Source of the DNA: an uncultured cyanobacterium | GTDB taxonomy: Bacteria > Cyanobacteriota > Cyanobacteriia > Phormidesmidales > Phormidesmidaceae | DNA: 64,000 nucleotides | Assembly: GCA_963793265.1 (NCBI GenBank) | Contig: CAWBZI010000005.1 | Coordinates: forward strand, 96,001 to 160,000 | Direction of reading: 5' to 3' | Shown: one piece after another, positions 38,890 through 41,520 of the stretch | Numbering within the stretch: the first letter of the stretch is position 1 | Layout of the letters: each line of letters begins with the position of its first letter | Notes under the pieces: generated by a model | What the model was told of the DNA's origin: nothing | Seen by the model: the letters and a program-made list of their open reading frames with translations, nothing else | Database searches by the model: none | Position numbers and translations under genes: made by a program

Positions 38890-40117
38890 TTAGCGATTGG
38901 GTGAGGGCATAAGGTGGACGGATGCTACGCCCTCGCGCAGACCTTTTTGTTCGTGAAGCCAGATGTTTTGAGCAAAGCGGAAGGGGCCGAAGGTGGTTGC
39001 GATCGCTTTAAATCCCCAGTAAGGCAGTCCCGGCTGCGAAATAAACGCAACCTTGCGCCACTCAGCTAGCTGCATTTTTTGTACTGCTTTGATTTCAGGC
39101 GATCGCTCTGCTTGAATAGCCTCAAACACGTCATCAACGGAATTATCGTCCAGACGCGCAAACTGATTAGCAACAACAATCGCATCGCGCAGACGCCATA
39201 TTGATGCCCTGCGCCCGATTAGGGGCCATTGGGTGAGCCGCATCGCCAATCAGCAACAAACCTGGAACCGTCCACGAGTCACAGCATCCAACCTGCACAT
39301 CTAAATATATTGGCCCTTCTAGCTCGTCTTTGTGCGCCCGGAAGTGACTAGCTAATTCTGCTGGTAAAGCCTGCGAAAACTCTTCTATCCAATCTTTCTC
39401 TTTCAACGCCGCGAGTCCACCCTTCTTATGAGCTTTCTTTTCAACAATCCAGCCAATCTGCAAACGCCCATCCCAGGAGGGATAAAACGCAAACTGCCGG
39501 TCGGGTTGCAAGCATGCGAAGAAAGGCGTTTCTGGTGATAGAGACTCGGGGGCCGGTAGCTTGAACCACAGCACATCAAATTCTGCATCGGACTTTTGAA
39601 GGTTTAGACCAGCTAGCTTACGCAAACAAGAGTAGCGGCCATCGCAGGCGATTACGCAGTCGGCGGCAAAGTCTCTAACTTCACCGTTTTGTGAGGCACG
39701 AAGTCCAACAACTTTATTCTGTTCATTTCGTAATAGTTCGTTTACCTGATAGCCTGTGTGGAGATGGAAGTTATGTAGCTGAGTGGCTTTTTGTGCGATC
39801 GCCTTCAGCAAAGCTCCCTGATCCATAATCTGCGTAGAGAGCCCATCATCCTCTGGCTCCTCTACCCGCATCCGCCGCCGCCCGCCTACATAAAAATCCC
39901 AAGATGTCAGCCGCCGCGATGGAATGCTCTCAAATGTCTCTTTCAATCCCATCTCGTACAGCGCTTCTAACCCAGCAGGCATGAGCCCTTCGCCTCTGAA
40001 GACGCGATCAAAAGCGGTTTCTTTTTCTATCAGGGCTACCTGATGCCCCTGTTGGGCTAGCAATAATGCTGTTGTTATACCGGCTGGGCCTGCGCCAGCG
40101 ATCGCAATGCGTTTCAA
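38890..40117 (-). CDS. FAD-dependent monooxygenase (UbiH-like); apparent +1 frameshift near 39193
   Basis: IAGAGPAG, RVFRGE, ACDGRYS, LIGDAAHPMAPNRAQGINMA; one extra base breaks GINMA-LRDA and the rest lies in ORF 38890..39249. Confidence 0.87.
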
Positions 40118-40210
40118 AATAGTCCAGTCCCCAACAGTTCAGTAAAAACCTATTATTGAACGCATAGCAAGCCCTCTAGCATATTCAAAGGCTTGCTATA
40201 TGCCTCATGG

Positions 40211-40459
40211 TTACATCTTTACACGACGAGTCAACACAACCATGACTTCGTTGCGATCGCCCGTCGGCACAGGCTTACTCCAATCATTAGGCTCGGCGTA
40301 GTTAAGCTTGAACAAAGTGCGGATAGTCGATTGAACCGCATGAAGGGAGCCCCGTATGGTGTGGGTCACAATCTCGGGGCTATCGTCTGAGGGAAATGAG
40401 GAATTGCCGATAGGGGGAACGGTGGACGCAGAGGCGTCCGGGCGGGCTGAAGTAAGCAT
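40211..40459 (-). CDS. Small hypothetical protein
   Basis: 82 aa; GS..AV..TI..L..L.YAE..DWS.P.PT...EVM..L pattern, which I recall from cyanobacterial hypotheticals. Confidence 0.7.
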   Translation of the reverse strand: MLTSARPDASASTVPPIGNSSFPSDDSPEIVTHTIRGSLHAVQSTIRTLFKLNYAEPNDWSKPVPTGDRNEVMVVLTRRVKM

Positions 40460-40483
40460 AGTATTTTCCGTTGTTTTGAGGAA

Positions 40484-40649
40484 ACCAGAACCCCACTAAA
40501 CCAGGCCACCCCGCGAAAATGTAGTGCAAATCGGGGTGGCTAGAGTAAAGTGACTCTAGCCGCCGGGACTGCGTGTTAGTCCGGGGGGTTAGCTATCGGT
40601 AGGTGCTAGTAACACCTATCGATAGTGCTGAGCGAAATCGAGTTCTGGT
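40484..40649. ncRNA. Putative structured RNA or leader (multi-hairpin)
   Basis: Enclosing stem ACCAGAAC/GTTCTGGT plus four internal stems (see findings); strand unresolved. Confidence 0.55.
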
Positions 40650-40657
40650 GAGAACGA

Positions 40658-40675
40658 CTGTGATAGGCATCACAG
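40658..40675. promoter_or_regulatory. CRP-type binding site
   Basis: CTGTGATAGGCATCACAG is an exact TGTGA-N6-TCACA. Confidence 0.6.
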
Positions 40676-40888
40676 CTTAGAGATGACGATAATCTGATTC
40701 TTTGCTGCCGTCAAGTGGAATTAAAATAATTGGCGAACCAGAAGACGGCAGTAATTTTATAGCGAGCGGGTCAGCGACGAGTAATCGGGTTGAGTTCAGG
40801 CCCCCTTCTAATCTATCAAGATTGGGCGCTGTAAGATATGAGAAATAAAGGGGAGTACGATGCACGATTATTAACTTAGGAAATCGCA

Positions 40889-41131
40889 ATGCTTAAAAGC
40901 TATGAAGCAATCTATGAAAACGGTCAGGTAAAGTGGCTGGATGGTCAACCGCCCGTGAGTTCGGCGCGCATTATTGTAACGGTATTGGAAGAATCTGCCG
41001 GAAGTGATAGCGCGGTGGTTGAGAAGAATCAGCGACGTGTGCCGCCTGCCTCGATTGCAGGAAAGGGAAAAACGCTAGGTGATATTGTGAGCCCCATTGT
41101 TGCAGAAGACGACTGGGAGTGTCTGAAATAG
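40889..41131 (+). CDS. DUF104/AF2212-like antitoxin
   Basis: MLKSYEAIYENGQVKW, GDIVSPI..DW; overlaps the PIN toxin gene. Confidence 0.75.
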   Translation: MLKSYEAIYENGQVKWLDGQPPVSSARIIVTVLEESAGSDSAVVEKNQRRVPPASIAGKGKTLGDIVSPIVAEDDWECLK

Positions 41132-41520
41132 TAGTGCTGGATACGCATATTTGGTTTTGGATGATGACTCAGGAATTTGAGCGATTTCCTACTGACTGGC
41201 AAACGGAAATTAACATAGCCAAGCAAGTAGGCGTGTCGCCAGTATCTTGCTATGAGATTGCGTTGGCTAATAGCAAGGGCCGCTTAGAATTGCCTTGTGC
41301 TGCGGATGAGTGGTTTGAGGCTGCTTTAGAACCTACGGGTATAGATCTGTTGCCGTTGACGGCAGATATCTCCTTTAAAGCAGTAAATTTATCACCTATT
41401 CACAAAGATCCTTTTGACCGAATGATTATTGCAACAGCACTGAGCTACAAAGCTAGATTGGCCAGCGTAGACAGGCTATTCTCTCGATACGATGAGCTAA
41501 AGGACTGCTTAATGGTGTAG
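41119..41520 (+). CDS. vapC: VapC/PIN toxin
   Basis: VLDTHIWFW, S.YEI, HKDPFDRMIIATA, SVD. Confidence 0.9.
   Translation: MSEIVVLDTHIWFWMMTQEFERFPTDWQTEINIAKQVGVSPVSCYEIALANSKGRLELPCAADEWFEAALEPTGIDLLPLTADISFKAVNLSPIHKDPFDRMIIATALSYKARLASVDRLFSRYDELKDCLMV

Follow-up and report, generated by a model that had tools for sequence, protein, structure and literature searches.

Between positions 40460 and 40675 of a 64,000-nt stretch of DNA from an uncultured cyanobacterium of the family Phormidesmidaceae (contig CAWBZI010000005.1, positions 96,001 to 160,000; hereafter the window), several hairpins with partly competing stems lie beside a small open reading frame (ORF) for an 82-amino-acid (82-aa) protein, which raises the question of what this element is and on which strand it acts. 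An earlier note on this DNA had proposed either a plus-strand small RNA (sRNA) of ~180 nt, divergent from the ORF or antisense to its leader, or a switching 5' leader. Our analysis indicates that the element is a structured 5' leader of the 82-aa ORF, read from the minus strand within a cassette of about two dozen copies, and that it probably also encodes, on the plus strand, a cis-antisense RNA of ~75 to 95 nt, comprising the hairpins H3 and H4 and predicted to shift the leader to a fold in which the ribosome-binding site is buried. Taken as a whole, we consider this reading probable rather than assured.

The cassette, its promoter and its leader fold

The element is repeated, and each repeated unit contains the 82-aa ORF, a point that the earlier note had missed. 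A DNA search matched eight places in the window's own genome, and with a longer query the homology extended from 40184 (or ~40220, depending on the copy) to 40720, so that the 82-aa ORF and the hairpin region are both covered. The unit spans ~510 bp and consists, on the minus strand, of a sigma-70 promoter, a ~220-nt structured leader and the 82-aa ORF. In the window's copy, its parts are laid out as follows (MFE, minimum free energy; SD, Shine-Dalgarno).

40709..40714, minus strand: -35 box TTGACG of the sense promoter, from a consensus scan (9/12 matches for TTGACG-17 nt-TATCGT)
40686..40691, minus strand: -10 box TATCGT of the sense promoter, 17 nt after the -35 box; TAnnnT across the aligned leaders
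40657..40676, minus strand: P0, the 5'-terminal hairpin of the leader, from the MFE fold (37 leaders: G-U 34 versus A-C 5 on the ORF strand)
40484..40649, minus strand: core of the five-way junction, from the MFE fold and covariance model R1
40640-40649/40484-40493, minus strand: P1, the junction-closing helix (the outer stem of the earlier note)
about 40628-40638/40495-40504, minus strand: P1b, in the junction core
40593-40625: P2 (H4), in the junction core
40560-40588: P3 (core of H3), in the junction core
40541-40558: P4 (H2), in the junction core
40505-40540: P5 (H1), in the junction core
40466..40483, minus strand: anti-SD/SD hairpin UUUCC...GGAAA, shortened in the window's copy and a covarying helix in relatives
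40211..40459, minus strand: 82-aa ORF, with a variable disordered N-terminus and a conserved beta-alpha-beta C-terminal domain, motif ...LNYAEPNDWS.P.PTG..NEVM..LT.RV
40165..40198, minus strand: hairpin after the stop codon, stem TAGCAAGCC/GGCTTGCTA, kept in copy L002 via changes on both sides

The -35 box of the sense promoter is present in 37/37 aligned leaders, with TTG invariant and A and C nearly invariant, and among copies the homology stops at or just upstream of this box. At its right end the repeat has a conserved GTCAAG, which on the minus strand becomes CTTGAC; 17 variable bases come next, and then TATCGT or TAnnnT. A general promoter scan independently called the same TTGACG-17-TATCGT arrangement, from 40714 to 40686 on the minus strand. 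Judged by its spacing to this promoter only, the mRNA probably starts near 40678, and a Shine-Dalgarno site (GGAG/GGAA) lies ~10 nt before the ATG. The hairpin behind the stop codon is a possible mRNA 3' end or terminator; at 40165..40198 no U-run follows the stem and the scan called no terminator. The hexamer TAGTAT to which the earlier note had drawn attention is indeed present at 40459-40464, where it covers part of the start codon's complement; the other copies have not conserved it.

All the stems that the earlier note described can be found in the DNA. The outer stem ACCAGAAC/GTTCTGGT lies at 40484-40491/40642-40649, H1 (GCCACCCCG/CGGGGTGGC, 9 bp, perfect) at 40505-40513/40532-40540 and H2 (GGCTAGAGT/ACTCTAGCC) at 40538-40546/40553-40561, while H3 (40556-40570/40578-40592) pairs at 13/15 positions with one G-U, and H4 (40593-40605/40613-40625) forms 13 bp with one G-U on the plus strand. 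A 241-nt stretch folds with z = -5.4 on the plus strand and z = -5.7 on the minus strand, with 0/200 shuffles as stable on either strand, and the full minus-strand leader, 40678-40448, reaches -86 kcal/mol (z = -6.3).

To derive a consensus, 37 leaders were aligned (alignments A4 and A5), which yielded P0, P1, P1b and P2 to P5 and, from these, the covariance model R1. We then placed 81 leaders on R1, namely 43 that precede family-A genes (the family of the 82-aa protein) in the order, 26 from a class-wide sample, mostly from other families, and 12 that precede genes of a sister family, B. Standard pairs occupy 90.2% of the cells, compared with 31-45% when the partners are slid by 1-3 columns, and 46/52 pairs show compensatory changes; none of 500 shuffles reached any of the observed measures. 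Because the 81 leaders were fitted to R1, the alignment leans towards the structure, but the margin is still very large. The covariation that the earlier note had asked for upstream of homologues of the 82-aa protein is thus extensive, and it shows, at the level of sequence comparison, that the leader fold (P0, the five-way junction of P1, P1b and P2 to P5, and the SD helix treated below) is conserved. Unpaired bases of the junction are conserved as well, among them UAACCCC in J2/3 and GAUUUGCAC in the P5 loop. R1, which was built on the ORF strand, scores 153.7 bits there, but only 35.3 bits when the opposite strand of this locus is read. In agreement with the earlier note, which could assign no family, Rfam gave 0 matches at gathering score in the whole 64-kb window; a permissive search of 40100-41000 (E up to 10) returned only chance-level hits, Lambda_thermo with 16.6 bits (cut-off 50) and DABA-DC-AT with 12.8 (cut-off 56.1).

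The 82-aa ORF is a real protein-coding gene under purifying selection, because between the three closest copies there are 16-21 codons with synonymous differences, but only 2-6 with non-synonymous ones. It is intact in 8/8 examined copies, with a conserved C-terminal half. Its 60 homologue clusters are all without a name or labelled "hypothetical protein", and their hosts are Phormidesmis, Leptolyngbya, Leptothoe and similar cyanobacteria. An AlphaFold2 (AF2) model of the protein, with a mean pLDDT (predicted local distance difference test score) of 73, has ~28 disordered N-terminal residues followed by a strand-helix-strand arrangement, with no hydrophobic helix; two such beta-alpha-beta units might assemble into a ferredoxin-like dimer. 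Pfam, NCBIfam, PADLOC and PHROGs hold no family for the family-A or the family-B protein; Foldseek against the Protein Data Bank found nothing at E <=0.001 (best E 0.22, an ACT-like piece), a wide VIA-align search reached a best Z of 4.8 with generic beta-alpha-beta pieces only, and in the ESM Atlas only unnamed cyanobacterial clusters matched. A search for longer or fused forms gave one 202-aa partial protein.

How widespread is the cassette? In the window's genome, R1 finds 23 full-length leaders, of which 11 precede family-A genes and 12 precede family-B genes, and a hidden Markov model built from 36 homologues of the 82-aa protein (profile A3) finds 12 strong copies and one short fragment, with 12 weaker matches that make up the longer sister family B. 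The protein family occurs in 161/173 genomes of the order and in 19/19 genera, with 0 to at least 31 matches per genome in these 173 genomes, a swing that is seen even within one genus. Across the class, R1 matches leaders in 44/151 sampled genomes, from 9/34 families, often with as many matches as the scoring counts per genome at most. When loci were recovered via the protein only, the leader directly preceded the gene, in the gene's orientation, at 75 of 80 (72 full length, 3 cut by a contig end), and the remaining five hold at most 256 nt of upstream DNA. The position of the cassette is not conserved, as 0/11 orthologous loci beside the flavin adenine dinucleotide (FAD)-dependent monooxygenase gene in congeners carry it; the exact insertion boundaries are unreadable because the congeners are only ~70% identical in the flanking gene.

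Family B shares with family A the core IRHILLGSP.AVRQTIHLLH.L.YAE..LW, and its proteins are longer (100-170 aa, measured as stop-to-stop frames). Its 12 copies in the window's genome (loci L050-L061, e.g. C2:112556-112713 and C1:1164529-1164684) have the same leader architecture and are full-length R1 matches. Some copies of the cassette look broken: L017 (G045:C45:8075-8317) has a TAA stop at the third codon, and a frame match on contig C6 of the window's genome at 514730 is a 43-aa C-terminal fragment, so that cassettes evidently decay as well as multiply. In addition, L003:577-636 on contig C5, ~1 kb from the copy at 176386-176896, holds a separate 60-nt fragment with 95% identity to the 5' end of the window's ORF (40401-40460), which may be the remnant of a decayed or rearranged cassette.

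Strand assignment of the hairpins and the predicted antisense RNA

On which strand is each helix constrained? A G-U pair is tolerated on the strand that folds, and an A-C cell on the ORF strand corresponds to G-U on the opposite strand, so that G-U and A-C cells on the ORF strand were counted helix by helix. In the 81 leaders the G-U/A-C counts are 57/6 for P1, 45/10 for P1b, 57/17 for P4 and 66/22 for P5, versus 6/119 for P2 and 5/32 for P3; P0 (34/5, counted in 37 leaders) and the SD helix (58/30) side with the former group. The split is found in all three subsets (for P2, 2/66 in the 43 family-A leaders, 4/30 in the 26 class-wide ones and 0/23 in the 12 of family B), and it is reproduced by a second set, made up of 71 distinct leaders taken from named genomes, with 66/5 for P1, 98/15 for P1b, 4/97 for P2, 5/26 for P3, 73/4 for P4 and 53/34 for P5. 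Within the first eight P2 pairs, mismatches other than A-C are nearly absent (1 cell), which is expected of pairing on the plus strand. These patterns show, as far as comparative sequence evidence goes, that P2 and P3 are constrained as plus-strand hairpins and all other helices on the minus strand. The earlier note had placed most of the wobble pairs on the plus strand; this is right for H3 and H4, but not for the outer stem, H1 and H2, where across relatives the G-U pairs fall on the minus strand. Beyond this locus, the helix-by-helix asymmetry of G-U and A-C offers a way to assign hairpins of one locus to different strands without RNA sequencing.

Upstream of P2 and P3 as read on the plus strand, the loop of P4 contains a candidate promoter element. 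The corresponding features on the plus strand are the following.

40524-40529, plus strand: weak -35-like GTGCAA, 16 nt upstream of the -10 box in the window's copy
40546..40551, plus strand: predicted antisense -10 box TAAAGT in the P4/H2 loop, at a hexamer position conserved across leaders
40557..40632, plus strand: predicted cis-antisense RNA with hairpins P3' (40557-40591) and P2' (40592-40626)

Defining a -10-like hexamer as one with A2, T6 and at least 4/6 matches to TATAAT, we find it in the P4 loop on the plus strand of 77/81 leaders, versus 32/81 on the sense strand; in the second set the corresponding numbers are 71/71 and 42/71. The hexamer ends 11-13 nt before the P3' stem in 75/77 cases, and TGn precedes it in 21. 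Within the order it reads TAAAGT, CATAAT, TACATT or TACCAT, and in family B CATCAT or CATGAT, while in distant families an enlarged P4 loop reads TGTTAAAAT, TGCTAAACT, TGCTATGAT or TATAAT, i.e. an extended -10 element (e.g. TGnTAAAAT). The two invariant bases of the P4 loop correspond to A-11 and T-7 of such a box. Sequence conservation thus shows a -10 box on the plus strand of the P4 loop at a fixed distance from P3', and the antisense RNA would then probably begin at ~40557-40560, 6-8 nt past the -10 box and just before P3'. In the window's copy, the plus-strand segment 40557-40632 folds into two clean hairpins (-41.2 kcal/mol, z = -5.4, 59% of the ensemble), compared with only -28.4 kcal/mol for the sense strand of that segment.

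The plus-strand RNA that the earlier note had envisaged as one of its options therefore gains comparative support as an antisense RNA, but in a shorter form, restricted to H3 and H4 (~40557-40630) and driven by TAAAGT at 40546-40551 in the H2 loop instead of TAGTAT. The strand assignment also largely resolves the competition of H2 with H1 and H3 that had been taken as a sign of two conformations: the extended H3 is the stable plus-strand form and is not formed in the fold of the sense leader, and H2 (P4) would be confined to the sense RNA, since the predicted antisense start comes after the upstream arm of H2.

A further signature lies in the loops of the two hairpins. In 71 close pairs of leaders (80-99.5% identical), 41% of positions differ in the P2 loop and 52% in the P3 loop, as opposed to 7.6% in stems, 17% in the P4 loop, 14% in the P5 loop and 18% in junctions. 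When the three most similar copies of the window's genome are compared, the P2 and P3 loops together differ at 23/42 positions and the third codon positions at 58/249 (Fisher p ~7e-5, with the pairs not being independent), and the rest of the core leader differs at only 10/474 positions. By these counts, change in the P2 and P3 loops outpaces that at third codon positions, with everything else nearly frozen. In plasmid antisense systems, the loop sequence sets specificity, and loop changes yield new pairs that do not cross-react; loops as divergent as those of P2 and P3 would be expected if selection favoured self-specific loop-loop recognition.

The proposed Shine-Dalgarno switch and competing explanations

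How could such an antisense RNA affect the 82-aa gene? In most copies, the SD site is paired in an anti-SD/SD helix, UCUGGUUUCC/GGAGACCAGA, which shares 3-9 nt (4-5 in the window's subfamily) with the 3' strand of P1. This P1 3' strand, UUGAGUUCUGG, runs on into UUUCC in most copies, and together with UUUCC it can alternatively pair with the SD/start region, GGAGACCAGAnCUC-AUG, in a helix of up to 13-14 bp. The helix that hides the SD site appears in predicted folds, and its core covaries in 37 leaders (CG 26/UA 7; GC 27/GU 7/AU 2; UG 22/CG 9/UA 6). Moreover, both strands of P1, 5' and 3', and the segment next to the SD site vary in concert between lineages, from CAGAAC/GUUCUG/CCAGA in family A to CCAAAAA/UUUUUGG/CCCAAAA in distant families. 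The comparison shows, on sequence grounds, that the P1 3' strand (GUUCUGG) is shared between P1 and the longer helix with the SD/start region, and single-sequence folds of the leader land in either of the two states. The switching 5' leader that had been the other option of the earlier note is thereby supported, on the minus strand, by a conserved promoter and by a covarying, SD-sequestering helix that competes with the outer stem.

We modelled the switch on 68 leaders by forbidding pairing of the 5' half, which is the antisense target. With the target blocked, SD/start pairing went up in 34 leaders, down in 14 and remained unchanged in 20, and in most of the example folds examined the SD helix lengthened from ~7 bp to 10-15 bp, a result of the model that falls short of proof.

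Taken together, these features suggest the following mechanism. The antisense RNA, made up of P3' and P2', would meet the mRNA via the P2 and P3 loops and go on to pair with the leader's 5' half, i.e. with the 5' strands of P1 and P1b and with P2 and P3. The P1 3' strand, thus set free, would extend the SD helix from ~5-7 bp to 10-15 bp, and translation would be blocked. Divergence of the loops would restrict the antisense RNA of each copy to the mRNA of that copy. The overall logic would be that of a type I toxin-antitoxin (TA) system or of an antisense-guarded selfish cassette, and the analogy to type I TA modules that the earlier note had drawn is reasonable as a working model, with a toxicity of the protein that is hypothetical.

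Several observations weigh against this reading. The antisense RNA itself and both start sites are predictions, its -35 element is weak (GTGCAA), and a generic promoter scan of the window does not call the antisense promoter. The commonest P4-loop hexamer, CATAAT, is also -10-like on the sense strand, as reflected in the sense-strand counts above (32/81 and 42/71). The terminator scan found no intrinsic terminator after P2' in the window's copy, and a U-run within 22 nt after P2' is present in 2/43 family-A leaders, versus 12/12 of family B and 15/26 of the class-wide sample; even where it is present it is not independent evidence, because it is the complement of the A-rich P1 5' strand. The YUNR loop motif is enriched on the antisense side only mildly (45 versus 31 of 81), which is why we did not use its occurrence in the P2' loop as evidence. 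As for the switch, a deletion in the window's copy and its two closest relatives cuts the long SD helix down to the 5-bp UUUCC/GGAAA, so that the switch may be weak there, and the mean rise in SD-region pairing in the model folding of the 68 leaders is modest, from 10.7 to 12.5 of 19 nt. All leader sequences are paralogues and kin, and the counts are therefore not independent events. Finally, unlike typical type I toxins, which are hydrophobic, the cassette protein has 82 aa and, in its AF2 model, is soluble and beta-alpha-beta, without a membrane helix.

Could the leader control translation in cis only, as a riboswitch or another kind of sensor and without any antisense RNA, by way of a junction that binds a ligand, an ion or the encoded protein, so that P1 is stabilised and the SD site freed, with the plus-strand signals as side effects? 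A complex and strongly covarying junction of ~170 nt with conserved unpaired bases is what such a leader might look like, the mutual exclusion of P1 and the SD helix is a classic expression-platform layout, and the way in which leader and protein families co-vary as A and B types would suit autoregulation. This explanation, however, leaves unaccounted for the excess of A-C over G-U in P2 and P3 (119 versus 6 and 32 versus 5, replicated as 97 versus 4 and 26 versus 5), the -10 or extended -10 element on the opposite strand of the P4 loop at its fixed spacing, and the P2 and P3 loops that outpace third codon positions. The leader matches no Rfam family, and it would be unusual for a riboswitch to serve a single small gene that is present dozens of times per genome. 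We therefore regard a switch acting in cis alone as unlikely, although it deserves more weight than either of the two explanations that follow.

A further alternative is the ~180-nt plus-strand sRNA, closed by the outer stem, holding H1 to H4 and divergent from the ORF. The plus strand does fold well (-93 kcal/mol, z = -5.4), and H3 and H4 do carry their G-U pairs there, but the wobble pairs of P1, P1b, P4, P5 and P0 lie on the minus strand (G-U/A-C 57/6, 57/17 and 66/22 for the outer stem, H2 and H1, respectively), R1 scores higher on the ORF strand (153.7 versus 35.3 bits), and the conserved promoter is not TAGTAT but one on the minus strand at the other end of the element; such an RNA is very improbable. 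We give just as little credence to a repeat that acts at the level of DNA, similar to a miniature inverted-repeat transposable element (MITE), be it a mobile non-autonomous element or a set of hairpins for single-stranded DNA transposition, in which the ORF would be incidental. The multicopy state, with anything between none and at least 31 copies per genome in a single genus, and insertion sites that are not conserved would fit mobility of this kind. Yet a comparison of the two cassette ends shows neither terminal inverted repeats of >=7 nt nor direct repeats of >=6 nt; the homology ends are ragged, and no transposase occurs among 105 neighbouring ORFs of 23 copies. The ORF is clearly under purifying selection and intact in 8/8 copies, and the helix-specific G-U asymmetry, the promoter and the SD site point to a function at the RNA level. 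The reading that we prefer thus remains a minus-strand leader that is refolded by a predicted antisense RNA.

Relation to known systems and genomic surroundings

Type I TA systems in which an antisense RNA overlaps the 5' untranslated region (5' UTR) of the toxin mRNA, and in which mRNA folding governs translation, include hok/sok of plasmid R1, aapA1/IsoA1 of Helicobacter pylori, zorO/orzO and tisB/istR-1. Like these loci, the cassette is compact and self-contained, with its own strong promoter and a long, structured, SD-sequestering leader; a short cis-antisense RNA with two hairpins is predicted to target the leader in its 5' part, and the cassette occurs in several to many copies per genome with a patchy distribution and with neighbours of the TA and defence type. 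Unlike them, it reaches a much higher copy number (up to at least 31 per genome), and its antisense RNA would leave the SD site itself uncovered, acting ~100 nt upstream of it through a refolding of the leader. Type I toxins usually have <60 aa and are hydrophobic and membrane-active, with SymE and RalR as exceptions, and the cassette has no sequence, Rfam, Pfam or NCBIfam relation to known type I families. We do not claim membership in type I TA systems, since the antisense RNA is predicted, the toxicity hypothetical and the protein no short hydrophobic peptide, and since there is no homology to known families. The cassette is best described as a variant of antisense-controlled small-gene cassettes, with the antisense control being a prediction.

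Plasmid countertranscript control offers a second parallel, with antisense-induced attenuation in pT181 and pIP501 and kissing loops in CopA/CopT of R1 and RNAI/RNAII of ColE1. There, as predicted for the cassette, a stem-loop cis-antisense RNA binds the leader, forces an alternative fold and turns the downstream gene off, and the hypervariable P2 and P3 loops would fit a specificity that is set by loops. The cassette loci differ in being chromosomal and scattered, with no replicon, in having SD sequestration and not a terminator as output, and in controlling the gene of a small protein. Translational riboswitches share with the leader the conserved multi-helix junction, in which the closing P1 competes with an SD-sequestering helix; unlike riboswitches, the leader matches no Rfam class, is tied to a single multicopy small gene and has two hairpins that are constrained on the opposite strand.

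Within the phylum, the only type I candidate that we found in print is msoT1/msoA1 of Microcystis aeruginosa, which its authors present as the first candidate type I TA system in cyanobacteria (PMC12390103). As given there, MsoT1 is a basic protein of 63 aa with predicted membrane helices, and the antisense RNA overlaps its gene at the other end from the leader, pairing with the coding region's 3' end and with the 3' UTR (PMC12390103). Both systems combine a small protein with a cis-encoded two-hairpin antisense RNA, which in the cassette is predicted, but the cassette is unrelated in sequence and layout, and msoT1/msoA1 is not presented in that paper as a large multicopy family with a conserved junction leader (PMC12390103). 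A thin literature search (type I TA and antisense RNA in cyanobacteria; multicopy small proteins of Leptolyngbya) returned no title or abstract opening that describes the cassette family. The feature is real, widespread and unannotated, and a toxin-antitoxin-like design is not described for this cassette family.

It is tempting to speculate that the window holds one copy of a very large, undescribed family of type I TA-like cassettes in filamentous cyanobacteria, in which a leader with a five-way junction, refolded by a cis-antisense RNA, restrains a soluble 82-aa beta-alpha-beta protein, and in which rapidly diversifying kissing loops make each of the dozens of copies per genome self-specific. 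We put this broader proposal forward tentatively, as a possibility that falls short of probable. If it is true, Phormidesmis, Leptolyngbya, Leptothoe and their relatives carry tens of copies per genome of an unannotated RNA-controlled gene, with an RNA that is not in Rfam and a protein that is not in Pfam. The family would be the first large type I-like one in the phylum and would greatly extend antisense-controlled type I-like modules there, given the one candidate that we found reported (PMC12390103). Its antisense RNA would act via the long-range refolding of a complex junction, and each genome would hold dozens of naturally orthogonal sense/antisense pairs that could be used as parts in synthetic biology.

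The surroundings of the cassettes are mixed and often accessory. Genes for Uma2-family putative restriction endonucleases lie within 1.5 kb of 6/23 cassettes (L043, L045, L047, L057, L058 and L061), and the other neighbours of the 23 include PIN domains in two cases, DUF4258, Fic/DOC, DUF5615, HTH_3 and the R subunit of a type I restriction system. The cassettes thus seem to gather in accessory-gene islands.

Two observations concern the immediate neighbours of the window's copy. On one side, at 40889-41520 on the plus strand and adjoining the cassette, the end of an 80-aa ORF overlaps the start of a 133-aa ORF with a PIN domain (PF01850, E 4.7e-13), a pair that by its sequence is a VapBC-like toxin-antitoxin pair. 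On the other, at 38890-40117 on the minus strand, the ORF of the FAD-dependent monooxygenase has 316 aa and matches FAD_binding_3 at profile positions 4-307 of 349; a second ORF, of 119 aa (38890-39249), overlaps it in a different frame, and the monooxygenase gene may be frameshifted or split.

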